Shown: piece after piece, positions 14,813-60,265 of the stretch | Layout of the letters: each line of letters opens with the position of its first letter | How positions within the stretch are numbered: position 1 is the stretch's first letter | Source of the DNA: a bacterium | GTDB lineage: Bacteria > Patescibacteriota > Patescibacteriia > UBA1558 > S5-K13 | Length of the DNA: 64,000 nt | Direction of reading: 5' to 3' | Assembly (NCBI GenBank): GCA_029555085.1 | Contig: JAKPTO010000026.1 | Location: 37,217-101,216, forward strand | The notes under the pieces: generated by a model | Database searches by the model: none | Told to the model about the DNA's origin: nothing | Seen by the model: only the letters and a program-made list of their open reading frames with translations | Made by a program: the position numbers and the translations under genes

Positions 14813-17800
14813 TTATTCTTCTATTGTCTCTATTGTGACTTCTGTTTCTGTTATTGTTGTTTCTGTTGTTTCCTCTGCCGAAGTTTCCTGTTCTGTGGTT
14901 GTATCTGTTTGAGTTGTGTCTATTGAGGTTTCCGTGGTTTGATTACCTGATGAGATATCATCCTCTATTGTAGTTTCTGTTGTGTCTTCTATTGGAGTTT
15001 CTTGTTCTGTGGTTGTTTCTGTTTGAGTTGTGTCTATTGAGGTTTCTGTGGTTTGATTACCTGATGAGATATTGTCCTCTGTTGTTGTTTCTGTTGTGTC
15101 TTCTATTGGAGTTTCTTCTATTAAACCCTGCTCTGTTGAAGATGAAATCAATTCTGATGTTCCATCGCTACTAAATATCATTCCCTTGTATGCTCCGAAT
15201 GAATGCCAGTCAAATATCACATCAGTTTCTTGAGTATTTTCTATCTTTATCACAAAACCATTCTTTGTAACTTCGTCTATATAATAACCGCCATTGATTA
15301 ATGCGCGTGGAGAAATCGTTATAACTGGATCATTTCTATATTCATGCTCAAACATGACTGCTGTACTTGTTGCGCCTGTTAAAATCTTTGCTTGACCAAC
15401 CGTATCACGACCTAAATCAACTAATCCCTCAACTTGCAATGCGCCAGACAATACCAAATCTTCTAATGCGTCAAGCGACATTCCAAATTGCGCTCTAATT
15501 TCATTAATTTGTTGCTGTTGTTCTTGTATTGCTGAAACCATTACTGGCGTAAATGATTCATAGTCAATTGATTTGTTTCCACTTTCATCAATATTTAAAA
15601 GTTCTGGCGCAATTTCTTCTACTTGAGTTGTTATAAATCCTAATTTATTAATTTGTGTTTCATTTTCTATCCATACGAAATTTACTGCTTCAATGTCTGT
15701 TAATTTATTAAGCGAAATTATTCCATCTAATTGATCTATTGTTGCATTTTCTACAATTTGTTCTGAAGATGGGACAGAATTATTTAATTGATTTCTTAAA
15801 TTAGTAATTTCATTATTCAATGAATCAAATCTTTGTTCTATGTTATATGAATCTATAATGCTTTGTATTTCTGAAATATTTTCATCTTTTGCTTCTAAGA
15901 CCTTAGTTGTCACCTCTTTTTCAATTTCATTCACTGTTACACTCTTATTGTTTCTTGAAATTAATACATTTATAGTTCCAAAATCTCCACTAAATGATTC
16001 AAGCGCAACTCCGACTGTTGAGTCGCCCTGATTTGCTTTCATTAAATATCCTTGTCTTGATGCACTTGTCAAAGAATCACCCGGATTAATATCTCCATTT
16101 TCATTTGAGACAAATGCTGGAATCTGACCTAAAAGCGCTACTAATTTATAATTTGGATTATTTTTGTATTCTTCTTTTGAATTTCCTATAAATCCAGGCT
16201 TGGTTGAAATAATTCCAATAATATTTGAATCACTTGATGTGGCGCACCTTGATATAGCATTGTTATTTGCAAAGTCAATACATACAACCTCTCCTGATGA
16301 AATATTTGTATTATTAGTATAAAAATATTCTGCATAGTCAGCTGCTGGTGTGTCATAACCAGTATCAGCTAAAACTAAGCCATCGGAGCTAACCGTAAAG
16401 ACATTATCCCCTTCCGAATTCTGCAAAACAAATCCCAATACTTTTTCCTTTCCAAGATTTTTTATCGTGGTTCGACCAATATAATCTACTGAAAAAAGAG
16501 TTTCTTCGTATTCCACCCTACTTTGTATCTCAAATAAATTAGCGGAAGGGTGAGCTGATGTATTTACTACTTTTAACACCGGAACATGCCCCAAGTCACT
16601 AACTATTGTAGCTGATTTAATTAATTCTATAGGTACATCCGCGATTATTTTAGATTGCGATAGTGTTAAAGGGGAAACATTATTGGTTTCATCTCTAAAT
16701 TCTAATGTCCCATATGCATATGAAGAAGAATGTGGTCTTATTGCCCAAGTAGATGTTCCTACGTGAATTTCTTCTGCCCAAAGATCAGTCCATCTATAAT
16801 CTGATGAACCAAGAGTATAGGTTAAATTTGACTCAGGAACAATATCTCGCATAGTTGATGTTCCTGTTACATTGAGTGTTCCAGCACCTGTATTTATTAC
16901 TAAATCTGTTCCGTTCCATAAAATATTTGCATCTTGATCTTCTCCGAGATAGAGAGCAGCATTATCTTCGTCTATATAAACATTACCTGTAGCAAAAGCT
17001 CGAAAATTAGCAAGATCTGCACGTGAATGACCTAACCATATCTTAGACGACGGTTGAGTGGCAAAAAAACTAGAGAGAGTATATATAAGACCATTAACTC
17101 TAAGAGCGCTACCAAAATATGAATGACCTTTTACATCTAAAGTTCCTTCTACATATAAATCATTATCATCAAGTTCAAGGGTACTAACTCCGCTATTTGA
17201 TATTGCATTATATGGTAACGCGCTTACTCCACCTATATTAAATACATTATTATTAGCAAATACTATATGACCACCTGTAGTATTTATTGTTAAATCTCCT
17301 GAAGAATCAGTTCCAAATGTTGTTGAAGTTGCAGAATTGTATCCTAGTGTCAATTGTGGTGAAGTTGAGTTTACTACATGAAGCGCGGATGACGGCGCTG
17401 TAATACCGATACCGACATTACCACCATTAAAATATGATGCACCCCTAGAATGCAGTAAAATAGTCGAGTCATTAGATGAATTTCTCATGGTAAGGGATGT
17501 ATTAGATCCGCTACGCAACAAAACTCCTCCTGAACTAGGCACAATATTTAACTGGCCAGACGCTCTAATTTCCTGATTTCCAGATGATGGGAAAAATGAT
17601 ATAGATCTAGTTTTAGTAGAATCATAAAAATAAACATCTCCAGTAACATCTAGAGTTGCTTGCGGATCATTTGTCCCAATTCCGACCCTTCCTGAATTAT
17701 AATAAATACCATTACCATATGCGTTTGGGGTCCACCGGGATGACACAATTGGCGATCCGTTTATAGAAAATCCGGCTGCATCTACTATTCCAGTTGAAGC

Positions 17801-20356
17801 AGTGATAGTTGCACGACCGCCGACTGATAAGTTATTCGTTAGTGTAGTGGCACCGTTTAAAGTTATAGTATCGTCACTATTTGCATATAAAATTCTTCCC
17901 CAATCACCATCACTGGCTCCATATTTTACAAACGCAGTTCCTCCACCCACGCCATAAGAACCCATTGGTGCGGTATAACCAGCAGCAAGATGTTCATCTG
18001 ATATAACAATATTCATTTCTCCTCCATAACCATCTACAACAAAACTTGCTATTGTATTAACATTACTATCAACTACTGTTAGCGCATACTGTGGTGTTGT
18101 GGTACCGATTCCGACGTTGCCTGATCCGACATTAACTGCTATGTTATTATAATGCATTATATCGTTGTAACCGCTAATATCTACAGCCTCATAAACTACC
18201 ATTGGTGCATCTCCCGCTAAATCATATATACCAAACTCATCGTTGCTAAACATTCCACCATTACCAATATAAAAACCTCCTTTGCTATAATCGCCACTTT
18301 CAAAACTAGCAATCATATCTGTACTTGAAACATGTAAACCGCTCAGAGGATCTGTCGTCCCTATCCCAACATTTCCTGAGTTATAGTAAATATCAGATCC
18401 ATTTGTAATCCACTGAGATGATACAATTGGCGAGCCATTTATAGAAAATCCGGCTGCATCTACTATTCCGGTTGAAGCGGTGATAGTTGCGCGACCGCCG
18501 ACTGATAGATCGCCTATAAACGAAGAAGCGCCTGATTGTAATATTTTTAATACTGTACCACCATAATAATAAGCATTCTCACTAGTATCATACACGGCTA
18601 TATAAGTATCATCACCCTTATTAATTAAACCTATTTCATCAGTTATGGCGCCAGAAACCAATGCTACTGGACCATATAAACCATTAGCAATTATCTCTGA
18701 TCCAAAATCAGCAATTCCCGTTAAAGCAGTAATAGTTACCTTGCCTCCTATTGATATATCTCCGGTAAAATTAGCTCCTGATAAAAGTGCATAAGAAGTT
18801 GAAGCAGCAGTCCACACAGGATCTAATTCTGTAATTAAACTTCCAAGTGGTGAACCATTCCAATAAAGATCTCCACCTAGATTATATAATGTATCTACTG
18901 TTACAGCTGGAGTTGAAGATGCGATATTCAAACCATTATTTGTTACTACTAATCCCATTGCGGTTGTTGTTGCAAACGAAGAACTTCCAGTTACTATTAA
19001 ACTAGCAGATGAATATAAATCTGATGATAAATTTACAGGACCGTCAAAAGTATTTATTCCCGTCCATGTATTATTATCAGATAAAGACACCCCTCCCCCA
19101 TTTTGAACTATCGTAGTTCCACCACCAATAAAATTATATACGCCCCCAGTAAAAGACCCGTCCTCCCCTTTATCTCCTTTGTCTCCTTTTTCGCCAGTAT
19201 CTCCTTTTGGTCCAGCATCTCCCTTGTCTCCTTTTTCACCTTTTACCAAAATTGTTTTTTGGATAACCTGCGTATCACCATTTGCTGTATGATAATTTTG
19301 AATTATTTGGGGTTGAACTTTGTCGGTAGCCCCGAGATAAATATTTTTTATCTCCTGCGTTTCAGCTGCATCTCTTATAAATCGAACAACGCTATCCCTA
19401 AGAACTAAATTTATTGATAAAACTTTATTCGCAAATTTTTTTGATATATTCTCAGAATAATCTCTATATTTATTTAAAGAAACAAGAGAATTAATTATTT
19501 TCTGTAAAAATGTTAGCTTAGATGAAATATTGACAGACACCTCGCTTGCGCCAAGTACTCTATGAGATGGGTTATTTTCTGTATAATAATTATCTTTTTT
19601 ATTTAAAAACGCTCTTGGGTTAAAATATGAAATCCTATCAACAACAGAATGAGCTAATTCTTTATAATTATTTTTATAGCGTTTTAATAAATTAAAATTA
19701 TTAAGTTGTGAATTTCTTAAAAATTTACCAAAATTTGTTAATTTATTTTTTATGTTTGAAAATTGATATTTGTAAGCATTGGAAAATTTCTCAGAAGAAA
19801 GTGATAAAATTCTTTCTACTTTATTTTGATTTTCTCCATAAGTACCGAGAGCAGAAGGAATAAAAAATCTCATTGTCAAAATTAATAAAAAACTTATAGC
19901 TAAAAAATTTGCCAATCCAATTAATTGATTCGGAGAATGTGGTTTTGGGGATCTAAACTTTGAAGATTTTAAATTAGAATATTTTTTAGACTTATCAAAT
20001 TTAAAAAATGTAAAAACTGACAATAAAAAATTTCTAAAAATGTTTACTATATGATAAAAAGTTTTTTTAAATTTTTCTTTATTAAAAAAATGAATTTCTG
20101 CTAAAAGTATGTCTGGTAAATTTGGTTTTCTATTAAGTGAAACATCTTCATACTGAATTTGAAAATTCATCTCACTATTCTTCTCTTCATACTCTTTCAA
20201 GTAGCTTTTTTTCGTAAACCATATTCCATCAATTTTCTCTGCTTTTAATTTTCCCTGCCTCGCGCGAAGAGATAAATATTCTTGTGAATATGAACAATAC
20301 TTTGTCGCCTGTGACAAAGTAATGTATGGTTCTATTTGTTGATTTTGTTCGTCCAT
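14813..20356 (-). CDS. Giant (1847 aa) membrane-anchored fibre protein: N-terminal excisionase/MerR-like HTH, TM helix, collagen-like GXY tract, tail-fibre-like repeats, S74 intramolecular-chaperone-like domain, H-type-lectin-like domain and a Thr/Glu-rich tandem-repeat tail
   Basis: - HTH-like: YITLSQATKYCSYSQEYLSLRARQGKLKAEKIDGIWFTKKSYL
- TM helix: LIGLANFLAISFLLILTMRFF
- Collagen-like tract: GEKGDKGDAGPKGDTGEKGDKGDKGEDG
- Internal repeat present twice: LSVGGRATITASTGIVDAAGFSINGSPIVSS
- S74-like: LGFITTQVEEIAPELL...IDYESFTPVMVSAIQEQQQQINEIRAQ. Confidence 0.8.
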   Translation of the reverse strand: MDEQNQQIEPYITLSQATKYCSYSQEYLSLRARQGKLKAEKIDGIWFTKKSYLKEYEEKNSEMNFQIQYEDVSLNRKPNLPDILLAEIHFFNKEKFKKTFYHIVNIFRNFLLSVFTFFKFDKSKKYSNLKSSKFRSPKPHSPNQLIGLANFLAISFLLILTMRFFIPSALGTYGENQNKVERILSLSSEKFSNAYKYQFSNIKNKLTNFGKFLRNSQLNNFNLLKRYKNNYKELAHSVVDRISYFNPRAFLNKKDNYYTENNPSHRVLGASEVSVNISSKLTFLQKIINSLVSLNKYRDYSENISKKFANKVLSINLVLRDSVVRFIRDAAETQEIKNIYLGATDKVQPQIIQNYHTANGDTQVIQKTILVKGEKGDKGDAGPKGDTGEKGDKGDKGEDGSFTGGVYNFIGGGTTIVQNGGGVSLSDNNTWTGINTFDGPVNLSSDLYSSASLIVTGSSSFATTTAMGLVVTNNGLNIASSTPAVTVDTLYNLGGDLYWNGSPLGSLITELDPVWTAASTSYALLSGANFTGDISIGGKVTITALTGIADFGSEIIANGLYGPVALVSGAITDEIGLINKGDDTYIAVYDTSENAYYYGGTVLKILQSGASSFIGDLSVGGRATITASTGIVDAAGFSINGSPIVSSQWITNGSDIYYNSGNVGIGTTDPLSGLHVSSTDMIASFESGDYSKGGFYIGNGGMFSNDEFGIYDLAGDAPMVVYEAVDISGYNDIMHYNNIAVNVGSGNVGIGTTTPQYALTVVDSNVNTIASFVVDGYGGEMNIVISDEHLAAGYTAPMGSYGVGGGTAFVKYGASDGDWGRILYANSDDTITLNGATTLTNNLSVGGRATITASTGIVDAAGFSINGSPIVSSRWTPNAYGNGIYYNSGRVGIGTNDPQATLDVTGDVYFYDSTKTRSISFFPSSGNQEIRASGQLNIVPSSGGVLLRSGSNTSLTMRNSSNDSTILLHSRGASYFNGGNVGIGITAPSSALHVVNSTSPQLTLGYNSATSTTFGTDSSGDLTINTTGGHIVFANNNVFNIGGVSALPYNAISNSGVSTLELDDNDLYVEGTLDVKGHSYFGSALRVNGLIYTLSSFFATQPSSKIWLGHSRADLANFRAFATGNVYIDEDNAALYLGEDQDANILWNGTDLVINTGAGTLNVTGTSTMRDIVPESNLTYTLGSSDYRWTDLWAEEIHVGTSTWAIRPHSSSYAYGTLEFRDETNNVSPLTLSQSKIIADVPIELIKSATIVSDLGHVPVLKVVNTSAHPSANLFEIQSRVEYEETLFSVDYIGRTTIKNLGKEKVLGFVLQNSEGDNVFTVSSDGLVLADTGYDTPAADYAEYFYTNNTNISSGEVVCIDFANNNAISRCATSSDSNIIGIISTKPGFIGNSKEEYKNNPNYKLVALLGQIPAFVSNENGDINPGDSLTSASRQGYLMKANQGDSTVGVALESFSGDFGTINVLISRNNKSVTVNEIEKEVTTKVLEAKDENISEIQSIIDSYNIEQRFDSLNNEITNLRNQLNNSVPSSEQIVENATIDQLDGIISLNKLTDIEAVNFVWIENETQINKLGFITTQVEEIAPELLNIDESGNKSIDYESFTPVMVSAIQEQQQQINEIRAQFGMSLDALEDLVLSGALQVEGLVDLGRDTVGQAKILTGATSTAVMFEHEYRNDPVITISPRALINGGYYIDEVTKNGFVIKIENTQETDVIFDWHSFGAYKGMIFSSDGTSELISSSTEQGLIEETPIEDTTETTTEDNISSGNQTTETSIDTTQTETTTEQETPIEDTTETTIEDDISSGNQTTETSIDTTQTDTTTEQETSAEETTETTITETEVTIETIEE
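14882..15109 (-). repeat. Two tandem 114-nt (38-aa) near-identical coding repeats at the 3' end of the giant gene
   Basis: Copies at 14882-14995 and 14996-15109 encode ETPIEDTTETT(T/I)ED(N/D)ISSGNQTTETSIDTTQT(E/D)TTTEQ. Confidence 0.85.
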
Positions 20357-20759: not shown

Positions 20760-21218
20760 ATGGAAAAATTAATAATTTTGAATAAAAAAATTGACTACGA
20801 ATATGAAATCAAAGAAAAATTTGTAGCTGGATTAGTTTTGTTTGGCGATGAAGTTAAGTCAATAAAAAATTCTTCATTTGACATGAAAGATTCGTATATA
20901 AAAATTTCATCTGAGTCCGAAGTTCTTCTTCTCAATTTTAAAATTTCTCCATACAAAAAATCAAATTTAAACTTATTGAAACACAAACCCAATAGATCCA
21001 TAAAATTACTACTCAAAAAATCTGAAATTAAAAAATTAAATTCTCTTTTAAAAGAAAAATCCTACACTGCCATTCCTAAAAAAATTTTTGTAAAAAACAA
21101 TTTTATAAAAGTTGAAATTGCTGTTGTAAGGGGAAAGAAAAAATATGAAAAAAGAGAATTTATAAAAAATAAAGAAATTAAAAAAGATCTACAAAAAAAT
21201 TATAAACTTCATAGTTAA
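20760..21218 (+). CDS. smpB: SsrA-binding protein SmpB
   Basis: 152 aa. The sequence NKKIDYEYEIKEKFVAGLVLFGDEVKSIK and the basic C-terminal tail are typical of SmpB, and the gene lies next to tmRNA. Confidence 0.9.
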   Translation: MEKLIILNKKIDYEYEIKEKFVAGLVLFGDEVKSIKNSSFDMKDSYIKISSESEVLLLNFKISPYKKSNLNLLKHKPNRSIKLLLKKSEIKKLNSLLKEKSYTAIPKKIFVKNNFIKVEIAVVRGKKKYEKREFIKNKEIKKDLQKNYKLHS

Positions 21219-21521: not shown

Positions 21522-21912
21522 GGGGATGTATCAATTTGATGCATAAAAAATTTGTTCTTTGGCAAGTCAAGTTTTGCGAAACTTGTAAAAAACGCTAAAT
21601 CATAAATGTCAAATCATTTATAGAAAAAGTTAAAGTTGCATTTAGTAATCCAGCTTTCAACTTTTCAATTGCTTAATCTTTTTTAAAAATTAAGCCATCC
21701 TCTATCTTCATACTCGATGGGGATTTACGAGGGTGTTATATTTTCGAGTTATACTATGGTAATTTCCATGTGCCATAGTGAAAACTTATGGAATATATAA
21801 ATAATATTTTTCTTATTTATAGTTATTTATAGAATTTTAAAAATAAGATAAACTTGTAGATAAAGAATGAATTGTTAGGCAGACAGGGGTTCAAATCCCC
21901 TCATCTCCACCA
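21522..21912 (+). ncRNA. ssrA: tmRNA (SsrA), standard one-piece form
   Basis: The 5' GGGGATG pairs with the 3' CATCTCC-ACCA, including a G3-U70 wobble (alanine identity element). The T-arm GGGGTTCAAATCCCC lies just before the acceptor 3' strand. A candidate tag ORF runs from GCA at 21638 to TAA at 21674-21676. Confidence 0.9.
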
Positions 21913-23195: not shown

Positions 23196-23272
23196 GGAGC
23201 GGTAGTTCAGTTGGTTAGAACGCCTGCCTGTCACGCAGGAGGTCGAGGGTTCGAGTCCCTTCCGTTCCGCCA
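23196..23272 (+). tRNA. tRNA-Asp (GUC), CCA encoded
   Basis: Acceptor GGAGCGG / CCGTTCC, anticodon stem CCTGC / GCAGG with loop CTGTCAC (anticodon GTC), T-arm GAGGGTTCGAGTCCCTT, and 3' GCCA. Confidence 0.93.
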
Positions 23273-23442
23273 GAAAAATCTAAATATATAAAATAAATAC
23301 TCTATCAAATGTAGGGTTTTTATTTTTTACAAAAAGGGACGAGAAGTTTATCCCGCCGTATGGCGGGAAGTCCCTTCCGTTCCGCCAGAAGAATCTAAAT
23401 ATATAAAATAAATACTCTATCAAATGTAGGGTTTTTATTTTT
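23254..23442 (+). repeat. Direct duplication (74 nt, one mismatch, 115-nt period) of the tRNA-Asp 3' end plus 55 nt of downstream flank
   Basis: 23254-23327 matches 23369-23442, with a single mismatch at 23276/23391. The 41-nt spacer contains the hairpin TCCCGCC-GTAT-GGCGGGA (23351-23368). Confidence 0.85.
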
Positions 23443-23649
23443 ATACAGATATTGCAAAACACATACCTTTATTTGACTCAAAGCGTTAATATGTTAAAAT
23501 AAACAATTAAATATTAAATGTTATATTATTTATTGTGAGAATAAACCAATAACAAATACAAATATCTTTAAAATAAAAAAACCTGTTAAAAAAGCAATAG
23601 AATTGATATAATTTATAAATAAAATAATAAAATACTAAATAAAAACTAT

Positions 23650-33634: not shown

Positions 33635-36600
33635 TTATTTTTTATATAAAGTGGAAACAAATCTTTGCATTCTGTCATTCAATACATCTAAAGCAATTCT
33701 TGTACTTTCTGGTGCGTTTTTTGGTATGCTCTTTAATGTGAGTTCCCAAAATTTTATCTCAAAATTATTTAACTTACTACTACCTGTTCTTTCCAGCTTT
33801 ATATCGCTTAATAATTTAAATGCTTTATCGTGTACAATGTCTTTATTAGCACTCTCCGTAATTATTCTATATAATTCAGTACCTCGTTCTCGGCTATAAA
33901 AAAATGTTCCAACTGAACTAACATCTGATGTCTGTTTAATAATGGAACCATTTTCATCAAATACTTGTTTAAGTGTTCCGCTTCTTCCCGCCTCCTTAAA
34001 AGTAACGAGCTTTGTATAATCATCGAGCCATTTCTCTGTTATTGTTCCTGTATTTGTTTTTATAATTTCTATATTTGGCTCGGAAATCAATTCTTGAAAA
34101 TTATTCTCTGTAATTTGCTCTAAGCCGGGACTTTGTGGATCAAGATCTGCATAATATTCCCCATGGTCTTTTTGAATTTCCAACACCCGATTATTACCAA
34201 CATTCGTTTCAAATTTAACTGGAATATTGTCTTCAACATCTTTCAATGCCTCTTCCAACTCAGAAAATGTATTAACTCTTTTAACTCCTAGTATCTCTGT
34301 TTGATTTTGAGCTATAGGCACACGATCTAATATATCTTCGACAGGTGTCCGTCCTGATATACCTTTGGTAGGCACATGATCTGGCTCAATAGTCAAATTT
34401 TGAACTGAGGATACTTGGTCTGATATATCTTCTATATTTGACTCAGAAATCAATTCTTGAAAATTATTCTCTGTAATTTGCTCTAAACCAGGGAGATTAG
34501 GATTAAAGTCTGTGTAATATTCTCCATTGTCCTCTATAATCCGTACAACATTACCACCAATTTCTACATCAGCCGAAGCACCTGCCTCTTTAAACTGAAA
34601 TACTTCTTTCAAATCAGAAAAATCCCTAACCACTGGAACCTCTGATGTTTCTATAGGTACATTAGTCAATGTATCTGGGGTGACTTCTATACTTTCTGTA
34701 GGTACATGATCTAACATATCTTCAGTGGGTACATGATCTGGTTTAATAACTGGGATTTCTGTATTACCATTATTAAACTCATCTTGCAACCTCGCTATTT
34801 GAAAATTTAACTCCTCTCCAGTATTTTGCTGTTGTGAAAGTAATTCTCGAGTTGCATTTAGTTCCTCAGATATCTTCGCTTGTATATTGGATGGAATATT
34901 TGGATCATCTAGCATTTCTTCTAATCTGGTAATTGATAATTTTGACTTTATTATATCATCATTTAACTCAAAATATTTACTTTGTAGCTCTTCTATTTGC
35001 TCAGGATAATTTGACTTAACTATATCTTCTACGGGTAGCACTTCTCTTACATTTGTTGGTCTGACAATTTCTGAAACATTAGGACCATGTTTGGGCTTAA
35101 TGACGCCCATTACATTATCTACATAATGTTTGTAAAAACTTTCATAAGACTTGGGTTTGACAAAGGCAAAAACCTCGTTAGTTTCTGGATCAACGACAAC
35201 TCTTGCTCCCGGCGCAACAACATTTGCATCAAAATTTTTAAGAATCAATGGTTCGCCATTAGGTCCAGAAGTAACAAGTGTCATTTTTGAACCACGAGGC
35301 ATGCTTATACCCAAAGTTTCAGAAACACTAGAGCCCTTAGCTACTGGAACGCCTTGATCTGCCAACTCTTGAATACGTTGAGGGTTCAAACCCTTAATAT
35401 CTTGAAAATTAGATACATCTGATTTTTTTGGAGAAAAACTTTGTGATGCCTCATTTATATCATCCGCTCGACTTGTTGAGATAACCTGATCTTTTTTACC
35501 AAAAACAGAGTTCTTCAAATTCTCAAAAGACTTTCCTAATCTCTCCATTCTTGAAACTATATCAGCATAACTTACAAAATTATCTTTCATGTTTTCCAAT
35601 ACATTACCCTGAGTAAATGTTTTGGTAAAACATTGTACCATGTTATCCACACTTGCACCAGATGTTTGTATTCCTGATAAAGCTTGCGTTCCCATACCAA
35701 GAGCCATTAATAATTCCCCCCAAGCTCTCATCATGGTAGTTTTTTTATCAAAACCTTTTAATTTTCTAACATCACTATGTTTTTTTAATTTATCATTTTC
35801 TACATAAAAACTTGATTCATATCGTTTTCCAGATAATCCATAATATGTTTCTAAAAACATTGTTTTAAATGCATCTCCAAGATATTGATGTGCTTTCATT
35901 TTTTCGCCAACCTTATTCCAGGAATATTCCTTTTGATATTTCAATGCTGATTTATCTAATTTTCCACCAAATGCAAATATTCCATACATAGCACCTCGAA
36001 GTCCAGCCGCACCTATCCCGCCACCAAAAACCATAGCCGTATTAAGTGCATCTTTTACAAGTATACTTCCATTTACTGTTCCTTGTATATAATCTTGCAA
36101 AATATAATCTATTTTTTTTGACCTTTGTTTTCTTAAATCATTTTTTGATTCCAAATTCGTAAGTAGAACTTTGTTTAATCTATTTCTCATTGTCATCTGA
36201 TCATGATCAGAAATAATATACAATAACTTTTCTTTATCTGTTAATGAACCTTCGTTAAACTTTTTTTCTATTTCTTGTCTTTTTTCTTTTGGTAAATCAT
36301 AATAATTCTGAGATCTGGCATTCTTTATCATTTCATTATATTGCATTGCTTTTTCTTTTACATCATCTACAGAAATTTTTTCATTTTTTATAAAATTTTC
36401 TCTAATTTTATTATTCTCCATTGAAAGAGTTTTTATTTTACGCTCTAATTCTTCTCTTTCTGTTTCATCTTTTGTGTTTTTATATATCTCTACATATCTA
36501 GATATTGCAGCAACTCTTCTTTTGTAATTATCATCTTGGTAAAGCTTCTGAAATTTTTCCTTATTAGAAGAAATCAACTCTGCTAAATCGCTTGTTTTCT

Positions 36601-38758
36601 TTTCTGCCTCAACCCTATCTTTCTTTGTTTCACTTTTTTGATCAAAATATTTATACACATCTGTTCTCTTGCCAAGAGCAAAATTAATTTTTCCTCCACT
36701 TATTTTATCAAGTCCATGCGCAAGTCCAGCGCCAATCCAATCACCAATGGCTTTAACACCAAACATTGAACCGATAATATTATATATTCCCTTACCTGTT
36801 GCTGCGCATAAGGCCCTCTTTTCTTCTTTTTCTTCTGGTGTTTTTGGTTTCTTAAAAATCAAATCAAAAGTTTTCTTAACCCTATCCTTAAATTTAACTT
36901 TTATCTGTTCTTCTTTTAACTCTTCATTGATAATATGTTCTTCCGGCGTATTAGATTGAATTTCTTTTTCTGATTCAAAATTATTGTAAGTAGATGTCCA
37001 TTTTATTTCTTGTCCCCATTCTGGACTGGTATGGGTAGATGTCCATTTTGCTTCCTGTCTCTCTCCTTGACTCGTATTAGTTTCCCATTGTTGTTCTTGA
37101 TTAGTATTAGATATTGTCTCTGGTTTTATTTCTTTTATTCCAAGTACATTGCTTATATATGTATTTGTATTTTCAAGAAGACTTGGTGCTATTTTTGTCA
37201 CAAAATTTACAATAAAAGACTCATTACCCTCCCTACCCTCATCTTCTACTCTATCCTTAGCTTCTAAAAATTTTCTTACCTCAATAATCTGATTATCGCT
37301 TAGTCTACTCAACTTGTACTTTAAAATATCAACTCCGGTATTTTCTAATTCTAAATGTTTATTAAAAAATTTTTCCTCTGTTTTCGGCAAATCGTCTTCA
37401 AAGACTTGTTTTTCTTTAATAACCTCCTCTTCTGATTTTTCAAAATTCTCTGATTTTGAAGTCTCTTCTTTTTCTGATTTAATCTTTTCTTCTGAATTTC
37501 CTAACAACTCTTTAACTTTATCTCTTAAACCGTATGCTCTAGTAACGAAATTAATATGATAGCTTTCGTGTCTCACTTGATCAATTATCTGCTTCAATTC
37601 CTCTGGACTATATTTTTCTTTGGTACCATCTATTGTCCCAATTTCTTCTATGGCAGAAAATAATTCCTCAAAATTTTTAGCATTGCTAATTTTTGCTTTT
37701 TGATTTTCTAGTAACTCTACAACCTTATCTCTTAAACCGTATGTTCTAGTAACATAAGTATTGCGAAGATCTCCATTCCTTACTTGGTTAATGATCTGCT
37801 TCAATTCCTCTGGACTATATTTTTCTTTGGTACCATCTATTGTCCCAATTTCTTCTATGGCAGAAAATAATTCCTCAAAATTTTTAGCATTGCTAATTTT
37901 TGCTTTCCTATCTTCTTCTGTTTCTATTGTATTTTTTTTATTTTTCCCCTCAATTTCTTTTTTAGATTCACTTTCTCTCATCATTTCAATGAGTTTTTTT
38001 GCATGCATTTTAGCCCATTGAATTTGTCCTTCATTATTTTCATAATCTAAACCTGCTTCTGGGTTAGGATGATTATCTTTTTCCCTATTTTCTATATCAT
38101 GTTGTTTCCAACTCATAAGAATTTTATACGCAATAGCTGTTTCTAAATCATTTGTAGTATCTCTATACATGTCATAATGTTTGTAATAATCATTAAAAAT
38201 GCCTTTATAATCTATACCCGTTTCCATATCTGGATTTTCAAAAAAATTCTTATACACTTTTTCAACTTCAGATTCCATATATTTATAATCTTCTGGATTG
38301 TCTGGTAATTCTGTTTTTATAACTCTCTCTGGAACCTGATCTAAAACATTGAGATCTTTTTCTGATTCAAATTTTTCATCTATTTTTTCTTGTCCATCTT
38401 CGGGGATTTCTTTCGCATACTCGTCTGATGCTGATATAATTTCTTTTGCCCTTTTTATTCTCTTATTAATCTCAGGGACTAATTTTCTTAAATCTTCTAA
38501 ATAATTAAAAAAAAGAGAACGATCTTCATCAAATGTTTCTTGGTCACTCGATATAAGTATATATTGATCTGCACTAAATGATATATCCGACCTAATTTCT
38601 TCGAGTAATTCTTCACCCCTATTTAATATTTTCTCTAAAGCTTGTTTCTTAAATCTTATGAATCCATCTGGGTTATTATTATCTATAAATTCTCTGTATT
38701 GCTCATTCTTATCAACTAAATTTTTTAAATTCTCTGTAGGTTGTTTTATTTTATCCAT
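33635..38758 (-). CDS. Giant (1707 aa) orphan protein: acidic coiled-coil-rich N-terminal third, internal Gly-rich hydrophobic segments, and duplicated modules
   Basis: A single uninterrupted ORF with no signal peptide. Hydrophobic Gly-rich segments include ALCAATGKGIYNIIGSMFGVKAIGDWIGAGLAHGL and NTAMVFGGGIGAAGLRGAMYGIFAFGG. The 69-aa module KAKISNAKNFEELFSAIEEIGTIDGTKEKYSPEELKQII is duplicated, as is a ~121-aa-period module containing PGLEQITENNFQELISE. Confidence 0.8.
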   Translation of the reverse strand: MDKIKQPTENLKNLVDKNEQYREFIDNNNPDGFIRFKKQALEKILNRGEELLEEIRSDISFSADQYILISSDQETFDEDRSLFFNYLEDLRKLVPEINKRIKRAKEIISASDEYAKEIPEDGQEKIDEKFESEKDLNVLDQVPERVIKTELPDNPEDYKYMESEVEKVYKNFFENPDMETGIDYKGIFNDYYKHYDMYRDTTNDLETAIAYKILMSWKQHDIENREKDNHPNPEAGLDYENNEGQIQWAKMHAKKLIEMMRESESKKEIEGKNKKNTIETEEDRKAKISNAKNFEELFSAIEEIGTIDGTKEKYSPEELKQIINQVRNGDLRNTYVTRTYGLRDKVVELLENQKAKISNAKNFEELFSAIEEIGTIDGTKEKYSPEELKQIIDQVRHESYHINFVTRAYGLRDKVKELLGNSEEKIKSEKEETSKSENFEKSEEEVIKEKQVFEDDLPKTEEKFFNKHLELENTGVDILKYKLSRLSDNQIIEVRKFLEAKDRVEDEGREGNESFIVNFVTKIAPSLLENTNTYISNVLGIKEIKPETISNTNQEQQWETNTSQGERQEAKWTSTHTSPEWGQEIKWTSTYNNFESEKEIQSNTPEEHIINEELKEEQIKVKFKDRVKKTFDLIFKKPKTPEEKEEKRALCAATGKGIYNIIGSMFGVKAIGDWIGAGLAHGLDKISGGKINFALGKRTDVYKYFDQKSETKKDRVEAEKKTSDLAELISSNKEKFQKLYQDDNYKRRVAAISRYVEIYKNTKDETEREELERKIKTLSMENNKIRENFIKNEKISVDDVKEKAMQYNEMIKNARSQNYYDLPKEKRQEIEKKFNEGSLTDKEKLLYIISDHDQMTMRNRLNKVLLTNLESKNDLRKQRSKKIDYILQDYIQGTVNGSILVKDALNTAMVFGGGIGAAGLRGAMYGIFAFGGKLDKSALKYQKEYSWNKVGEKMKAHQYLGDAFKTMFLETYYGLSGKRYESSFYVENDKLKKHSDVRKLKGFDKKTTMMRAWGELLMALGMGTQALSGIQTSGASVDNMVQCFTKTFTQGNVLENMKDNFVSYADIVSRMERLGKSFENLKNSVFGKKDQVISTSRADDINEASQSFSPKKSDVSNFQDIKGLNPQRIQELADQGVPVAKGSSVSETLGISMPRGSKMTLVTSGPNGEPLILKNFDANVVAPGARVVVDPETNEVFAFVKPKSYESFYKHYVDNVMGVIKPKHGPNVSEIVRPTNVREVLPVEDIVKSNYPEQIEELQSKYFELNDDIIKSKLSITRLEEMLDDPNIPSNIQAKISEELNATRELLSQQQNTGEELNFQIARLQDEFNNGNTEIPVIKPDHVPTEDMLDHVPTESIEVTPDTLTNVPIETSEVPVVRDFSDLKEVFQFKEAGASADVEIGGNVVRIIEDNGEYYTDFNPNLPGLEQITENNFQELISESNIEDISDQVSSVQNLTIEPDHVPTKGISGRTPVEDILDRVPIAQNQTEILGVKRVNTFSELEEALKDVEDNIPVKFETNVGNNRVLEIQKDHGEYYADLDPQSPGLEQITENNFQELISEPNIEIIKTNTGTITEKWLDDYTKLVTFKEAGRSGTLKQVFDENGSIIKQTSDVSSVGTFFYSRERGTELYRIITESANKDIVHDKAFKLLSDIKLERTGSSKLNNFEIKFWELTLKSIPKNAPESTRIALDVLNDRMQRFVSTLYKK
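37587..37906 (-). repeat. Intragenic direct repeat: 113 nt perfectly identical, 207-nt period
   Basis: 37587-37699 is identical to 37794-37906 by base-by-base comparison. The flanks are diverged but related (CTTATCTCTTAAACCGTATG...). Confidence 0.9.
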
Positions 38759-45350: not shown

Positions 45351-45911
45351 TTATTTTATATAATTTCTTGCACTTACTGTTGTTTGTAATAAAATTTCTG
45401 CACCATCTCTATTATCAACAAATGTCATAACAATTGTTACAAGTGTTTGCTTGTTTAAATCCCCAGCAAGCTTTTCTGTTGATATAGTTGGGCTAATATA
45501 AAAATACATATCTTTCACGCTAACACTATTTCCAGTTACATCACTCCAACCAGAATCATTATATTTAACTTGCAGAAAAGTATTGTTTTTTCCTCCAACT
45601 AATTTTACTTGTTTTCGAAAAAAAATCTTATTACCGGAATTATCTTCTAGAGCCAACTCTGTTATTGGGTTTTTTACTGTAAAATCTGGATAATAAGAAT
45701 AATCAACATTACCCAATCTTACTTCTCTAGATATATAATCCATTGCGAACCTCATCTCATTTTGTACCCTTTGCATTGCTATAATCTTTGTATTTGCCTT
45801 CATTGTTAATATGTACACACCAATACAAATCGTTGAAACAATACTAAAAATAGCAGTCGCGACAATCATTTCAAGTAATGTAAATCCTGGTTTTTTATAT
45901 ATTTTTTCCAT
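45351..45911 (-). CDS. Type IV pilin/pseudopilin with prepilin-type N-terminal cleavage/methylation motif
   Basis: 186 aa with KKPG-FTLLEMIVATAIFSIV. Confidence 0.8.
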   Translation of the reverse strand: MEKIYKKPGFTLLEMIVATAIFSIVSTICIGVYILTMKANTKIIAMQRVQNEMRFAMDYISREVRLGNVDYSYYPDFTVKNPITELALEDNSGNKIFFRKQVKLVGGKNNTFLQVKYNDSGWSDVTGNSVSVKDMYFYISPTISTEKLAGDLNKQTLVTIVMTFVDNRDGAEILLQTTVSARNYIK

Positions 45912-45922
45912 AAATTAAAATA

Positions 45923-46582
45923 CTATTTCCAATTATATATCCTTTCTTGTATCTGGGTTGTTTTGATCGAACCTCCATCGTTCCAACCAACTAAAGAAGT
46001 TACCTGTAGGCCTATAAAATTTGTAGGATCTTCGCATTCTGATTCTGGTGATGTATTAATTATTTCATCTTCCCATTCATCATTATAACAAATCGCATCT
46101 ATATATATTATTCTATAAAAATTAGCATCCGACAATTGATAAGAATCTAATCCCTCCATAGAATCTTTATGAACATATATTTTTTGATTTGGCGATTCTT
46201 CTGGCCAAGCTAAGAACAATTTACATTGTCCAGTCTCAAGACATTTATCCCAAGGTATGCTAATGTATTCTAAAATATATCCATCTTGATCTTCCCTGGG
46301 ATACTTATTATCTAATATAAATGTTCTTGAATCTCCATCAATTGCTAAATCCGGTAATAATCCACTGCTCCACGCTAATCCATCAATCCAATTTGAATCT
46401 CTTATATTTCTAACAACTTCCACTCCTTCTCTGGCTAAGTTCGTGGCTTTAAGCATATTATGATTGAAACGCTCAACCCTAAGATTCGCCACAACTAAAT
46501 TCATAATAGATAAAATACCTACCACTGCTATATAAATAGCTATTACTACCTCCAATATTCCCTGTGCTTTACTTTTTTTCAT
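45923..46582 (-). CDS. Type IV minor pilin-like protein (variant leader)
   Basis: 219 aa with KAQG-ILEVVIAIYIAVVGIL. Confidence 0.6.
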   Translation of the reverse strand: MKKSKAQGILEVVIAIYIAVVGILSIMNLVVANLRVERFNHNMLKATNLAREGVEVVRNIRDSNWIDGLAWSSGLLPDLAIDGDSRTFILDNKYPREDQDGYILEYISIPWDKCLETGQCKLFLAWPEESPNQKIYVHKDSMEGLDSYQLSDANFYRIIYIDAICYNDEWEDEIINTSPESECEDPTNFIGLQVTSLVGWNDGGSIKTTQIQERIYNWK

Positions 46583-46584
46583 AT

Positions 46585-47166
46585 TTAATTATTTAAAAAT
46601 TCAGACCATGTTTTACCAGAACCTGGAGTAATGTTTATTACCCATTTCCCCGGTGCCTTAGTACTGCCTAAAAATATCTGACAAGACAAAACATTTTCAT
46701 CTTTATTTTCATCTATAATAATAGACATTAAACCTTTTGGCATTGAAAAATTAATATCTAATGATTCTAATTCTTTTTCTTCGTATCCAAGTTCTGATTC
46801 ATCTTTAATTTTACACCGTAACTGATCAAAATAAAACTGACTTTCTAAAATATTTTCTGAATAAATTAAATTTTCATTATAAAAACCATAAACACCAATA
46901 TCTGCGTAAATATTATATGAATATGAACCATTTACATCCTTTAAAAAAATTATTCCATAACCATTAATAGGTACTGTATTTTGAATTTTTTGACCTGTTA
47001 GTGAAAGATTTTTTGTAAATCCTATTGAATCTTCTATGTCATAAGCTGTTAAACGAAATTCATTTATTCTTCTTGTATATCCATAATCAAGAATAACAAC
47101 ACTTAAGAGAATTACAAATATACCAATCGCAACTACAACCTCTATTATTGTAAAAGCTTTTTTCAT
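46585..47166 (-). CDS. Type IV pilin/pseudopilin (Ala at position -1)
   Basis: 193 aa with MKKA-FTIIEVVVAIGIFVILL. Confidence 0.7.
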   Translation of the reverse strand: MKKAFTIIEVVVAIGIFVILLSVVILDYGYTRRINEFRLTAYDIEDSIGFTKNLSLTGQKIQNTVPINGYGIIFLKDVNGSYSYNIYADIGVYGFYNENLIYSENILESQFYFDQLRCKIKDESELGYEEKELESLDINFSMPKGLMSIIIDENKDENVLSCQIFLGSTKAPGKWVINITPGSGKTWSEFLNN

Positions 47167-47960
47167 ATAATTAATAAATTAATATACCAATTCAATAATT
47201 GCTCTCCGAAAAGAAAAGAAATAAACATTGCAAAAGAAATAAATGGTCCAAGAGGAATTTTTAATTTAGTTTTTTCTTTTTTAGATTTAGATAATAAAAG
47301 AAAAATACCAATTATTGCTCCGGAAAAGTAAGTAATCAATAACGCCACAATTGTAATTTTAAATCCCAAAAGCGCACCCATAAAAACCCCGAGCAATATG
47401 TCTCCACTACCAAGCCATTTTCCTTTTGAAATAACATATTGTATACCAAAAAAAATTACTCCGAGAACAATCCCATAAAAAATATTTAAAATATTATTTT
47501 TCATTATTAAATTAAAAATAATAGATAAAACTATCCCCAAATAAACTATAAAATCCACTATTAAATAGTATTTCAAATCATAAATAAATATAAAAGACAA
47601 AATAAATACAAGTATTAAATAAAATATAAAGCTAATAATTAATTGACCATGAAGCCAAAGTCCAGAAACAAAGAAAAACCAATATCCGAATGAAAATAAA
47701 ATTCCTAGAATTACCTCAACAAAAAAATTCTCAAATTGAATCTTTGATTTACAATATCTACATTTCCCAAGTAAAACAATGTAAGAAAAAACTGGAATTA
47801 AATCTAAAATCCCCAATGTTTTTTTACAATTAAGACAATACGATCTATTAAGTATTGATTTTTCTTCATTTATTCGATAAATCAAGCAATCTAAAAAACT
47901 ACCAAAAACAGCCCCTAAAATAAAAAATAGTATATAGAACATACCATTATTATAGCACAA
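47163..47960 (-). CDS. pilD: Prepilin peptidase (A24 family, PilD)
   Basis: 265 aa, polytopic, with the N-terminal CLNC...CRYC zinc motif and GSGDILLG. It forms an ATGA overlap with the downstream pilin gene. Confidence 0.88.
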   Translation of the reverse strand: MCYNNGMFYILFFILGAVFGSFLDCLIYRINEEKSILNRSYCLNCKKTLGILDLIPVFSYIVLLGKCRYCKSKIQFENFFVEVILGILFSFGYWFFFVSGLWLHGQLIISFIFYLILVFILSFIFIYDLKYYLIVDFIVYLGIVLSIIFNLIMKNNILNIFYGIVLGVIFFGIQYVISKGKWLGSGDILLGVFMGALLGFKITIVALLITYFSGAIIGIFLLLSKSKKEKTKLKIPLGPFISFAMFISFLFGEQLLNWYINLLII

Positions 47961-50339: not shown

Positions 50340-51554
50340 TTATTGATAATATTTATTTCTATTATAGTTAAATTCAAAAGATTTATTAAAATCAGATACT
50401 AATGATGGAATATTTGAAACCATAATTGACTCATCGTTTCTAAAAAATCCCCCAGAACTCCAATTATTTGTTCCAAAAAGAGCTATTTTATCATCAAAAA
50501 TCATTAGATGATGGTGTAAAAAAGAATTTAAATTTTGTTCATTAAATATTTGTTTTAATTCTTTATTTCTATTTTCATCAGTCAAAATTTCTAAATTATC
50601 TAAATGATTTTGCTTTTTCTTTTTTATCATAAAATTAAATACGGAACCATCTACTGAAAAATTATAATCATCTGTTAAAATTTTTACACTAATCTTTTTT
50701 GATGCTAATAATAAATCTTCTGCAATATCTCTATCTGTCATAAGCCAAATCATGGATTTTATGTTGTCCTTTGAATTCTCAATCAGATTCAACATTCTAT
50801 CCTTGATACCAGTATTTATTCTTTGTGGAGTAAACCAAATTTCTAAAAATCCTTCTGGATATTTTATAAGAGCAGCGAATGGATTATATTCTTTTGATAA
50901 TTTATCTCTTCCGCGTAAACCAGAAAATATTCTATCAAATTCCTCTCCATATATTTCAATAATTTCTGGCCTGTCAGTTTCTAAAATAAAACTCGGATCA
51001 TATTTATCTTGAATATAAGTAAAATTATAAGAACTAAAGAGTAATTTCTGGGTCTCCTCGCCTCTATCAATTATTATAAATTTATGATGCATGTATTCTG
51101 ATTTTTGAGTATTAATGTTCCTAGACAAAATATCTTTTCTTGTAATATTATCTCGCTTTTCTGAAAACAATCTATTATTTATATCTCTATGCACATCACT
51201 AAAAACTAATTTTATATTCACTCCTCTGTCTGATGCTTTATAAATTGCATCTCTTATCCTTTCGTCGTTCATAGAATAAATAGCCACTTCAATGGTTTTT
51301 TGTGCAGAATTTATAGAATCAATAACAATTTTTGACAAAATGTTTTGTCCAAATTCATCATTAAAATGTAAACTCCCTGAAAATGGTTCTGTGATTTCTA
51401 TGATTTTCGCAGGCCTAAATTCTACTATTCTTCTCTTCGAAAAAGATGTAAAAAATAAGTATATAAAAATTCCCATTGTAATTAATAAAAGAATTGGAAT
51501 TGCCCAAAAAATAAATGTCTTATGTGATTTTTCTAATTTCATCACCCAGCTCAT
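50340..51554 (-). CDS. Membrane-anchored phospholipase D-family protein (two PLD repeats, the second with a variant HKD motif). Third gene of the RT operon.
   Basis: 404 aa with a TM helix (FIFWAIPILLLITMGIFIYLFF). The first motif is canonical: HHKFIIID...FSSYN. The second is HHHLMIFDDKIALFGTNNWS, with Lys replaced by His at the x-K position. It overlaps the upstream gene by 35 nt, or 23 nt if M5 is the start. Confidence 0.75.
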   Translation of the reverse strand: MSWVMKLEKSHKTFIFWAIPILLLITMGIFIYLFFTSFSKRRIVEFRPAKIIEITEPFSGSLHFNDEFGQNILSKIVIDSINSAQKTIEVAIYSMNDERIRDAIYKASDRGVNIKLVFSDVHRDINNRLFSEKRDNITRKDILSRNINTQKSEYMHHKFIIIDRGEETQKLLFSSYNFTYIQDKYDPSFILETDRPEIIEIYGEEFDRIFSGLRGRDKLSKEYNPFAALIKYPEGFLEIWFTPQRINTGIKDRMLNLIENSKDNIKSMIWLMTDRDIAEDLLLASKKISVKILTDDYNFSVDGSVFNFMIKKKKQNHLDNLEILTDENRNKELKQIFNEQNLNSFLHHHLMIFDDKIALFGTNNWSSGGFFRNDESIMVSNIPSLVSDFNKSFEFNYNRNKYYQ

Positions 51555-53235: not shown

Positions 53236-54427
53236 AATGAAAGTCTAAATAAAAATTATATAATGATTTTATTTTTAAATATTCTATCTCTTTTCTTAAC
53301 AACCTTCTGTTGCGTGGTGAATATTTACCAAATATAAAATCTGTTAAAATACGGAAAAAATCTTCTGATAATTTTTTTATTTGTTCTGAGTTATTGATTT
53401 GTGGTTTATCTTTTATAATTTTTTGAAATTGGTAGTTAAAATTTTTTTCTGGATGTCCCATAATCCTTCTCAGTAAATACTTTTTTTTACTTAAATTATA
53501 ATTTTTATATTTTAAAATACTTTTCCAACCAGCAATAATACGCTTAATATATGATTTTTCTAAACTAATAATTCCTGAATTAAAGCAGTAGCCTAAAAAA
53601 GAAAAATTTTCTTTTGCATCACCAATAAATAATTTGCTATTATTTATTGTTAAATTTCTAATATTCAAATCTTTGATAATTTCTAATTTTAATTTATTTA
53701 GCTTGTCTATGTTATTATCAAAAATACCTATATCATCTCCTATTCTTATATAAAATGAACATTGTTTTTGATATTTATGATCAAGGTCTGTTAAATATAA
53801 ATTATTAAAAAGTGCTATTAGTGGAACACCCTGGACAAGACCTATATCAGGTGCTTCTATCTTACCATTTTTATATATTTTATTAAAAATAAATAATTTT
53901 AATAAATCTAATATTTTTCTATCTTCAAAAATGTTTTCCAGTTGTGAGTATAAAACATTCTTATCAATCAAGTCAGAATAGTTTTCCAAATCTAACACTA
54001 ATGCTTTGTCTGTAGAAAAATTTTTCCTATATCTATGGCAAAAATTTTTTGCTGCAAAATATGGTGGCTTGCCCGGCCTATATGAAAACAATCTTTTTGA
54101 AAAAACTTTTTCAAATTCTGGTAATAAAACTCTATAAATTGCCTGTGCTTTTATACGATCTTTTATATTATAAATAAAAATATCCCTGAATTTCTCGGGA
54201 TTATTTTTTTTAGGAATTGAAACAATAAGTGCTGGCTCAATTTCCCTATTTTCAACTAATTCTTTTTGACAAATATCTATAAGCTCCTTTGAATTTAAAT
54301 CTCTGTCTTGTATTGAAATATTATCCAAACCGTGATATCTAAAACTTTTACTATCTATAGAAAATTTTTCCACTATATCTAAATAAGCAGATCGAATATT
54401 ATCATAAGATACAATTTTATTAAACAT
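53210..54427 (-). CDS. Stand-alone reverse transcriptase, with no endonuclease or recognisable maturase extension
   Basis: 405 aa with RT motifs in order:
- SIPKKNNPEKFRDIFIYNIKDRIKAQAIYRVL (motifs 1-2)
- SYRPGKPPYFAAKNF (motif 2a/3 region)
- LVLDLENYSDLID (motif A)
- GLVQGVPLIALFNNLYLTDLD (motif B)
- FYIRIGDDIGIF (YxDD-type motif C)
- LTINNSKLFI...FSFLGYCF (motifs 6-7)
A ~110-aa helical tail follows. Confidence 0.85.
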   Translation of the reverse strand: MFNKIVSYDNIRSAYLDIVEKFSIDSKSFRYHGLDNISIQDRDLNSKELIDICQKELVENREIEPALIVSIPKKNNPEKFRDIFIYNIKDRIKAQAIYRVLLPEFEKVFSKRLFSYRPGKPPYFAAKNFCHRYRKNFSTDKALVLDLENYSDLIDKNVLYSQLENIFEDRKILDLLKLFIFNKIYKNGKIEAPDIGLVQGVPLIALFNNLYLTDLDHKYQKQCSFYIRIGDDIGIFDNNIDKLNKLKLEIIKDLNIRNLTINNSKLFIGDAKENFSFLGYCFNSGIISLEKSYIKRIIAGWKSILKYKNYNLSKKKYLLRRIMGHPEKNFNYQFQKIIKDKPQINNSEQIKKLSEDFFRILTDFIFGKYSPRNRRLLRKEIEYLKIKSLYNFYLDFHYERNKRTN

Positions 54428-59570: not shown

Positions 59571-59574
59571 ATTT

Positions 59575-60237: not shown

Positions 60238-60265
60238 TTTTTTATCAAATATTGAATATTAAATT

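Follow-up and report, generated by a model that had tools for sequence, protein, structure and literature searches.

The tRNA-Asp locus and its tandem array

The window, a 64,000-nt stretch of DNA, comes from an organism of ~28% GC that belongs to the Patescibacteria and lies near Falkowbacteria. Around the array described below, the gene order is smpB, tmRNA, infC, rpmI, rplT, tRNA-Asp and a MacAB-like MFP/ABC/FtsX operon. The tRNA-Asp(GTC) gene (23196–23272, plus strand) is intact, encodes its CCA and begins 24 nt 3′ of rplT; it was called by ARAGORN and matches the Rfam tRNA model with 71.7 bits. From within its T-loop onwards the sequence is repeated in two 74-nt direct copies (23254–23327 and 23369–23442), spaced 115 nt from start to start and differing solely at one position, which is A at 23276 and G at 23391. 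The repeat starts at A58 of the tRNA and covers its last 19 nt, CCA included, followed by 55 nt of trailer. A near-identical repeat of 74 nt within 64 kb is far beyond chance. The initial annotation had described this repeat of a 19-nt tRNA-Asp tail and 55 nt of flank, with its 115-nt period and single mismatch, and we confirmed its coordinates exactly; the 41-nt spacer with the GC hairpin TCCCGCC-GTAT-GGCGGGA that it placed between the copies likewise lies where it had been reported, at 23328–23368.

All parts of the array are on the plus strand. The first tail copy (23254–23272, AGTCCCTTCCGTTCCGCCA, tRNA nucleotides A58–A76) belongs to the functional tRNA, and the trailer behind it (23273–23327) consists of an A-rich run, a terminator-like hairpin (23299–23317, ACTCTAT-CAAAT-GTAGGGT) and a T-tract. 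This trailer folds at −10.3 kcal/mol (z −3.65), and over its first ~25 nt it can be aligned with the native trailer behind the tRNA in relatives. The 41-nt spacer, hereafter module M (23328–23368), is built in the order TACAAA, AAGGGAC (23334–23340, the 5′ strand of a helix that we call P1), GAGAAG (23341–23346), TTTA and a hairpin that we call P2, which is formed by TCCCGCC (23351–23357), a GTAT loop (23358–23361) and GGCGGGA (23362–23368). Directly behind it, the second tail copy (23369–23387) duplicates tRNA nucleotides A58–A76 and supplies the 3′ strand of P1, GTCCCTT (23370–23376). The second trailer (23388–23442), with its terminator-like hairpin at 23414–23432, differs from the first only by the G at 23391.

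To the right, 30 unique nucleotides (23443–23472) separate the array from a promoter-like site (TTGACT-16-TAAAAT, 23473–23500) that is kept in relatives. In the alignment these 30 nt have no counterpart in the relatives, whose terminator abuts TTGACT, and they may be a remnant of the ancestral terminator region. The promoter-like site is 3′ of the array and outside the element, and so marks the right-hand limit of the array. Within the unit itself we found no promoter-like site and each unit is preceded by a terminator, so that transcription of a unit would depend on read-through.

The array is lineage-specific and variable in copy number

The rplT-tRNA-Asp neighbourhood is kept in four related species (L011, L012, L013 and L015), with an identical tRNA-Asp sequence in L011 and L012. 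Neither the spacer nor the duplicate is present in any of the four, each of which has a single tRNA and one terminator; the array is therefore lineage-specific and not conserved in all relatives. The comparison of occupied and empty sites that the initial annotation had proposed thus does return empty sites in sister species, although what it reveals is not an ordinary integration site. A covariance model of the unit found no further copy in the window or in 35 related loci, and model R1, against which module M of the window scores 69.9 bits, found no second copy across the 296 kb of sequence examined. In L011–L013 the MFP gene is separated from the tRNA-Asp terminator/promoter by a small ORF of ~150 codons; in the window (23500–23640) this ORF is deleted and short remnants are left.

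We then compared contigs encoding exactly the same L20 or MFP protein, taken from independent JGI/ENA metagenomes, mostly of anaerobic digesters. The array is present in at least 14 contigs of these independent assemblies, which rules out the assembly artefact that had been considered for the window. Two tails, the window-like state, are seen in L001, L003, L005–L007, L067, L068 and L070, whereas L002, L004, L008 and L069 have three tails, that is, one more identical 115-nt unit; five contigs (L008–L010, L071 and L072) start or end within the array. Three tails is a lower bound, as short-read assemblies do not fix the true maximum. Contigs whose flanking proteins are identical included no empty allele. 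The array is a real variable-number tandem array, with one or at least two extra units in the window species: its units stand head to tail, and the same species shows two or at least three tails.

The spacer recurs behind other tRNA genes in Bacteroidota

Metagenome contigs were scanned with a loop-tolerant pattern of the spacer in which 22 of 39 core positions were fixed. The scan returned three contigs from other organisms (L046, L047 and L048) that share the core GGGAC GAGAAGTTTAT CCCGCC-N4-GGCGGG AA GTCCC with the window. In L046 and L047, assigned to Bacteroidota by the protein anchor Tpx, the core carries a CAGA loop and lies 3′ of tRNA-Leu(TAG); in L048 it carries a GCAG loop and lies 3′ of tRNA-Lys(TTT). 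In all three contigs the core is directly followed by a copy of the tail of the contig's own tRNA from A58. L048 (contig Ga0207681_10003543) is chimeric, with a junction at ~9115 where ~9.1 kb of 64–69% GC, actinobacterial-type DNA containing a truncated LigA is joined to an AT-rich, Chitinophagaceae-like segment with the SDR N-terminus, tRNA-Lys and the M unit. Its neighbour context was taken from the AT-rich end only, which the SDR fragment, used as anchor, places near Chitinophagaceae.

The same Tpx protein is encoded on two further contigs with M behind tRNA-Leu(TAG), L052 and L053. L052 has three extra units at a 103-nt period (4 tails) and L053 has one (2 tails); the units of L052 are distinguishable by SNPs and are thus real copies. 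No unit is present in L055–L061, with 84–86% Tpx identity, where tRNA-Leu is followed by its native terminator only. In all three lineages with M, sister species at 84–88% protein identity are without the element.

Eleven columns of M are neither fixed by the pattern nor derived from the tRNA, and conservation is informative at these alone, being partly by construction elsewhere owing to the 22 fixed positions. Seven of the eleven do not vary, and the remaining four coincide exactly with the hairpin loop (1/330). The three M lineages known were all reached through the 22-position pattern, which misses diverged copies such as that of L053, with CCCACC for CCCGCC. Judged by these alignments, the spacer is a conserved putative hairpin module that is present at three tRNAs in two phyla. 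The statement in the initial annotation that nothing is inserted at the locus has therefore to be revised, since the 41-nt spacer is itself the inserted, conserved element. Nor does the array consist of local sequence only, as would a plain VNTR, because the M core is common to the Bacteroidota loci and absent in the sister species.

Several possible sources of M were considered and rejected. Local and global alignments of the spacer as a degraded 5′ part of tRNA-Asp were no better than those of shuffled sequences, and no match that beat shuffles was found to tmRNA, 1.5 kb upstream, or elsewhere in the window. Pattern scans of IMG/VR viral contigs gave only two chance matches to M, within coding DNA encoding DEKFIP, and BLAST against phages and plasmids gave chance-level matches only. 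The literal M motif was not found in the literature.

An empty site defines the insert

L066 shares the synteny of L048 and carries an empty tRNA-Lys site. Behind the second tail of L048 the sequence is homologous to the native terminator of L066, whereas the terminator beside the intact tRNA of L048 is foreign. By this comparison, the insert in L048 comprises ~73 nt of foreign DNA (terminator, spacer and M) together with a 17-nt direct repeat of the tRNA tail; the tRNA end has been restored, and the native fragment and flank have been displaced. L053 contains two different terminators, ~80% alike by eye, which suggests that the insert has displaced the native flank there as it has in L048. 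The two trailers of the window are 99% identical, and in both the window and L052 the trailers have been homogenised, leaving their origins unassignable.

The unit is predicted to fold as an acceptor/T-arm-like helix

The consensus fold comprises the outer helix P1 and the inner hairpin P2. In P1 a 5′ strand ending in GGGAC pairs with tRNA nucleotides 59–65, and with nucleotides up to 70 in other hosts. The length of the helix is host-specific, at 7 bp in both the window and L048 and 12 bp in L052, with compensatory changes at three pairs. P2 (UCCCGCC/GGCGGGA) is invariant in the consensus and its loop varies freely; the folding z-score of the unit is −5.3. The 5′ strand of P1 is the Watson–Crick complement of the tail and not a copy of the 5′ strand of the tRNA T-stem. 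The informative positions are G49>A in the window and U50>A in L052, where the strand matches the tail even though the T-stem of the tRNA has G.U (window) or U.U (L052).

In the window an alternative register is also available, in which GGGACG(A)GAAG (23336–23346) is paired with CTTCCGTTCC (23374–23383), a partner strand also written CUUCCGUUCC, and a GCCA tail is left. This register reaches −27.3 kcal/mol against −22.1 kcal/mol for the family-conserved one, whose P1 in the window is limited to 7 bp, with 11 nt left unpaired; the register that looks more like a minihelix is particular to tRNA-Asp. The unit is predicted to fold as an acceptor/T-arm-like helix closed by a GC hairpin, with the NCCA tail free. 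The tRNA-like minihelix raised as a possibility in the initial annotation thus gains support, the helix between spacer and tail being the one structural feature common to all related units and to the RtT model discussed below. Uncompensated helix breaks are found in resident copies (P2 G>A in L053, P1 G>T in unit 2 of L052) and argue against a maintained host function.

The layout matches that of the RtT repeats of E. coli

Behind tyrT of E. coli lie 178-bp repeats that were already known in the 1970s, and their 171-nt rtT/RttR RNA has been known since 1991; to our knowledge, neither the repeats nor the RNA have an accepted origin or mode of action. E. coli K-12 has six copies of the 19-nt tRNA-Tyr tail that starts at A58: the genes tyrT and tyrV account for two, a unit lying between these genes for a third, and three units spaced 178 nt apart for the rest. 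A tail of 22 nt is confined to the two genes. In every unit GGGGAAGGAT, which is complementary to tRNA nucleotides 59–68, is directly followed by GAGAAG, or by GAGAAC in the unit between tyrT and tyrV. In the Rfam RtT consensus (RF00391) the same outer helix is joined by GAGAA, a GC hairpin on the inside and a CCACCA tail left free, and the E. coli units score 133–137 bits against this model (gathering threshold 45 bits). A stable RNA, rttR corresponds to one repeat unit and is released from the tyrT transcript (PMC3318445; bioRxiv 10.1101/2024.07.17.603846). This processed product is said to modulate the stringent response (bioRxiv 10.1101/2024.07.17.603846, citing Bosl and Kersten 1991), and its mode of action was still called unknown in 2024 (bioRxiv 10.1101/2024.07.17.603846). 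The same preprint reports that the mobilome coverage of tyrT-rttR in E. coli is elevated under stress.

The units of the window share this layout. In both systems, tandem units lie directly 3′ of a tRNA gene on the same strand, and every unit ends in a tail of the last 19 nt that starts exactly at A58. GAGAA stands two nucleotides after the T-stem 5′ strand, an internal GC hairpin has a 4-nt loop, and a 5′ strand complementary to the tRNA (nucleotides 59–68 in E. coli) forms an outer helix with the tRNA-derived 3′ strand, leaving a free NCCA tail. In contrast, the interior of the E. coli units is ~95 nt long against 29 nt in M, with no detectable sequence homology; the host tRNA is Tyr instead of Asp, Leu or Lys, in another phylum; and RtT is stably present in enterobacteria whereas M is patchy. 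The M units, unlike those of E. coli, each carry their own intrinsic terminator and are without a tpr-like ORF. RF00391 has no match in the window between 23150 and 23660 even at E≤10, nor in L046–L048, L034 or L037, and homology to RtT thus rests on the layout and the GAGAA pentamer.

Downstream tail copies were sought for 51 tRNAs in the sequences examined, and two more cases emerged, L034 and L037, both at tRNA-Gly(GCC) of other Patescibacteria. The L037 unit (964–1041) reads GCGCGGUA-GUGGG-UU-GAGAAAC..., continues with a GGGGC-UUCC-GCCCC hairpin and then with the tRNA from T54, and forms a 13-bp outer helix that includes G.U and U.G wobbles. The L034 unit (~250–420), 171 nt long, has an outer helix of 9 bp and is succeeded by the tail from A58; the decayed remnant of an L037-type unit lies 3′ of it. 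Both have the outer-helix layout of M and RtT with different interiors. GAGAA two nucleotides after the T-stem 5′ strand is present in RtT, M and the L037 type and not in the L034 unit. Nucleotides 57 and 58 flank the left boundary in all but one of the six unit types (so in the window, L052, L048, E. coli and L034), the exception being the L037 unit, which begins at T54. Besides tRNA, no Rfam family matches the units of the window, L046–L048 or L034/L037.

Sequence homology between L034 and RtT was considered and is only marginal, as the one 18-nt match was equalled in 11 of 1000 shuffles. RtT was also sought on mobile DNA; it is absent from phages, and the matches in the plasmid database are non-mobilizable records, several of them chromosome-sized. 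The tpr ORF of E. coli K-12 (L049, 1286000–1288200, minus strand) appears to start at the AUG of GGAUGAGAAG; its likely Shine–Dalgarno sequence would be the P1 5′ strand, and its first codons the conserved GAGAAG. A conserved tpr-like peptide in M was rejected, since the M units do not keep the frame, their loop changes are non-synonymous and all that the window offers is a 12-codon ORF that starts in the loop.

Origin and propagation of the array

In the reading that we favour, and hold with moderate confidence, the locus contains a small tRNA-tail element that resembles RtT, has been acquired sporadically and was amplified by unequal recombination; it is probably expressed, and trimmed, as a passenger on the tRNA transcript. 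The unit is non-coding and consists of the ~41-nt M, the last 19 nt of the tRNA from A58 and the trailer with its terminator, arranged in a short tandem array. It is a minimal, cross-phylum variant of the enigmatic RtT-type repeats, and neither an ordinary att scar nor a trivial duplication. The founding event would have placed M at the tRNA 3′ end, with nucleotide 58 onward restored or duplicated, and the island-like geometry supports targeted insertion at the T-loop. This was not a simple duplication, because the 189-nt A-B-A arrangement is not two 115-nt units and B is foreign. Copy number would then change by unequal homologous recombination or slippage between the 74-nt repeats, a step supported by the copy-number polymorphism.

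The units would be co-transcribed with the tRNA through terminator read-through, and their mimicry of the tRNA acceptor/T helix and trailer could expose them to trimming by RNase P, RNase Z or exonucleases and to the CCA-adding enzyme. By analogy with E. coli rtT RNA, the trimmed product would be a hairpin RNA of ~55–60 nt. Resident copies decay, hence the constraint on M probably reflects needs of spread or processing and not a host function. A partial parallel is offered by mascRNA of the MALAT1 transcript, a member of the mascRNA-menRNA family (Rfam RF01684), where a tRNA-mimicking helix within a longer transcript is likewise expected to recruit RNase P, RNase Z and the CCA-adding enzyme. 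That system differs in being eukaryotic, in forming a complete cloverleaf, and in having neither a tandem arrangement nor a copy of a neighbouring tRNA tail; for M, processing of this kind is only predicted.

The initial annotation had called the repeat att-like, and the geometry bears this out, given the restored tRNA end and the displaced native fragment and flank in L048 relative to L066. The units could accordingly be CIME-like miniature att-flanked remnants or non-autonomous derivatives of a tRNA-integrating island, with a tyrosine integrase acting in trans to recombine an attP-like site (M beside the tRNA tail) with the T-loop region, and with tandem units arising from repeated integrations or unequal crossovers. 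We regard this as unlikely. It would account for the intact tRNA gene followed in the same orientation by a displaced, direct 3′ fragment, the signature of Islander islands (PMC4383910), for a boundary within the T-loop region, which is a recognised crossover subsite, for the distal native flank and the foreign terminator beside the tRNA in L048, for the patchy, lineage-specific distribution and for a constrained M amid decaying resident copies. However, the Islander criteria for tDNA islands include a tyrosine integrase, one per unit in tandem arrays (PMC4383910), whereas the interval here is 41 nt with no integrase or other coding sequence between the repeats, the tandem M units have no integrase of their own, and a Pfam scan of the window ORFs of at least 140 aa found no integrase or transposase. 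The 'island', of 41–73 nt and without cargo, would have had to be trimmed to that same size (~41–73 nt) three times over, once per independent lineage. Between the T-loop TTCGAGT and the M junction GGGAAGT only AGT is shared, with no evident 6–8-bp identical overlap flanked by inverted core sites, and each host tRNA has a P1 5′ strand that matches it. The duplication found in the window and L052 passes through the native-type terminator, well beyond the tRNA, and M is absent from the viral contigs, phages and plasmids examined. With gene and integrase missing and the duplication running past the tRNA, the initial annotation was right to doubt an ordinary occupied or empty integration site.

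Insertion templated by RNA is a still weaker candidate: a chimeric transcript of M and the tRNA 3′ part (nucleotide 58/59 to the end) would be reverse-transcribed and inserted at a matching site, with snap-back synthesis making the complementary P1 5′ strand. This would fit the fixed left boundary at 57|58 together with a right boundary that varies among RNA 3′ ends (in the window and L052 where the terminator T-tract ends, in L048 at tRNA end +1), a P1 that is Watson–Crick paired to the tail where the tRNA has G.U or U.U, and a P1 length that varies from 7 to 12 bp; the window also encodes a free-standing, group-II-intron-like reverse transcriptase (53210–54427). Yet nothing ties this enzyme to the array, from which it lies 30 kb away in a defence-like neighbourhood, no reverse transcriptase is known near the Bacteroidota or E. 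coli units, and the units of E. coli K-12 weaken the idea unless retron or other reverse transcriptases are invoked. The L037 unit begins at T54 and not at A58, with wobble pairs. In an A-B-A arrangement the end of the first A is the insertion point by definition, so that only the coincidence with the terminator is informative, and we know of no bacterial retroelement that works in this way. We find it harder again to credit a host-beneficial small RNA gene, an RtT-like regulator or tRNA-end decoy under selection and vertically inherited, for which sister species without the unit in all three lineages, unstable copy number, helix-breaking mutations in resident copies and the mere decayed remnant of an L037-type unit in L034 are all awkward. 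The invariant non-loop positions of M beside a free loop, the P1 of L037 kept through G.U and U.G wobbles that are relevant only in RNA, and the stability and supposed regulatory role of E. coli rtT RNA would be expected of such a gene.

An assembly artefact, or a plain local product of tandem duplication or slippage with random filler, is barely credible as an account of the whole locus. Head-to-tail copies are 99% identical and copy number differs between assemblies, as such an origin would have it, but the 'filler' occurs at other tRNAs in another phylum, the A-B-A arrangement falls short of two full 115-nt units, no fewer than 14 independent assemblies show the array and the units of L052 differ by SNPs. 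The tandem duplication that the initial annotation counted among the likelier origins is thus refuted, in its simple form, for the founding event, and slippage or unequal crossover is retained for the later change in copy number.

Implications of a probable minimal tRNA-tail element

The locus shows that the RtT layout exists in a far smaller form, with a 29-nt interior, in Patescibacteria and Bacteroidota and on different tRNAs, and M is gained and lost between close relatives while its core is identical across phyla. A curiosity of E. coli thereby becomes a comparative problem with a minimal model, a hairpin of ~55–60 nt, and the shared features, namely the A58 boundary, the helix with nucleotides 59–65 or more and GAGAA, become concretely testable. 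There is also a practical side: at tRNA loci such units interrupt short-read assemblies, they look like att sites to island-finding pipelines and they may be mis-called as tRNA pseudogenes.

A broader and doubtful proposition, which we put forward as speculation, is that the M units, RtT and the tRNA-Gly units of L034 and L037 form a previously unrecognised class of miniature (~90–180 bp), gene-less mobile elements that parasitise tRNA genes. Its members would insert at nucleotide 57/58, copy or restore the tail, ride the tRNA promoter and the end-processing enzymes, multiply in tandem and cross phyla, and they may spread through an RNA or small-circle intermediate. If this were true, the class would be a bacterial counterpart of SINE- or retrozyme-like passengers.

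Other features of the window

Upstream of the array by 1.3–2.4 kb lie the tmRNA gene (21522–21912, Rfam 91 bits) and smpB (20760–21218); ARAGORN did not call the tmRNA of the window, though it called the orthologues in relatives. On the minus strand, M (23336–23374) reads CTTCCCGCC-N4-GGCGGGATAAAC and resembles type I-E CRISPR repeats (GTTCCCCGC-GCCA-GCGGGGATAAACCG). In register just 16 of 27 nt agree by eye, and the 4-nt-loop hairpin and ATAAAC are in common. A CRISPR array was rejected, as the segments between the hairpins are identical copies of tail and trailer and not unique spacers. Viral contigs scanned for GTTTATCCCGCC-N4-GGCGGGAA gave nothing.

The reverse transcriptase at 53210–54427 (minus strand) is a free-standing, group-II-intron-like protein of 405 aa that matches RVT_1 (3e-13) and the PADLOC models RT and RT_UG26, and reaches 125 bits against a cutoff of 300 for group_II_RT_mat. 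Its neighbours are a weak ABC-like protein and a double PLD/NucT-like nuclease (51520–53235 and 50340–51554), with which it may form a defence module. Involvement of a DGR was rejected, no TR/VR-type repeats being found near the reverse transcriptase.

Two giant ORFs on the minus strand (14813–20356 and 33635–38758), of 1847 and 1707 aa, have no Pfam match, and the former sits in a stretch of higher GC (33–37% against ~28%). At 58158–63962 and 45351–47960 lie genes that look like parts of a type IV secretion system (T4SS pilin, TraG P-loop), and a pseudopilin/prepilin-peptidase cluster; type IV secretion-like and pseudopilin genes are typical of the cell surface and DNA-uptake machinery of Patescibacteria.
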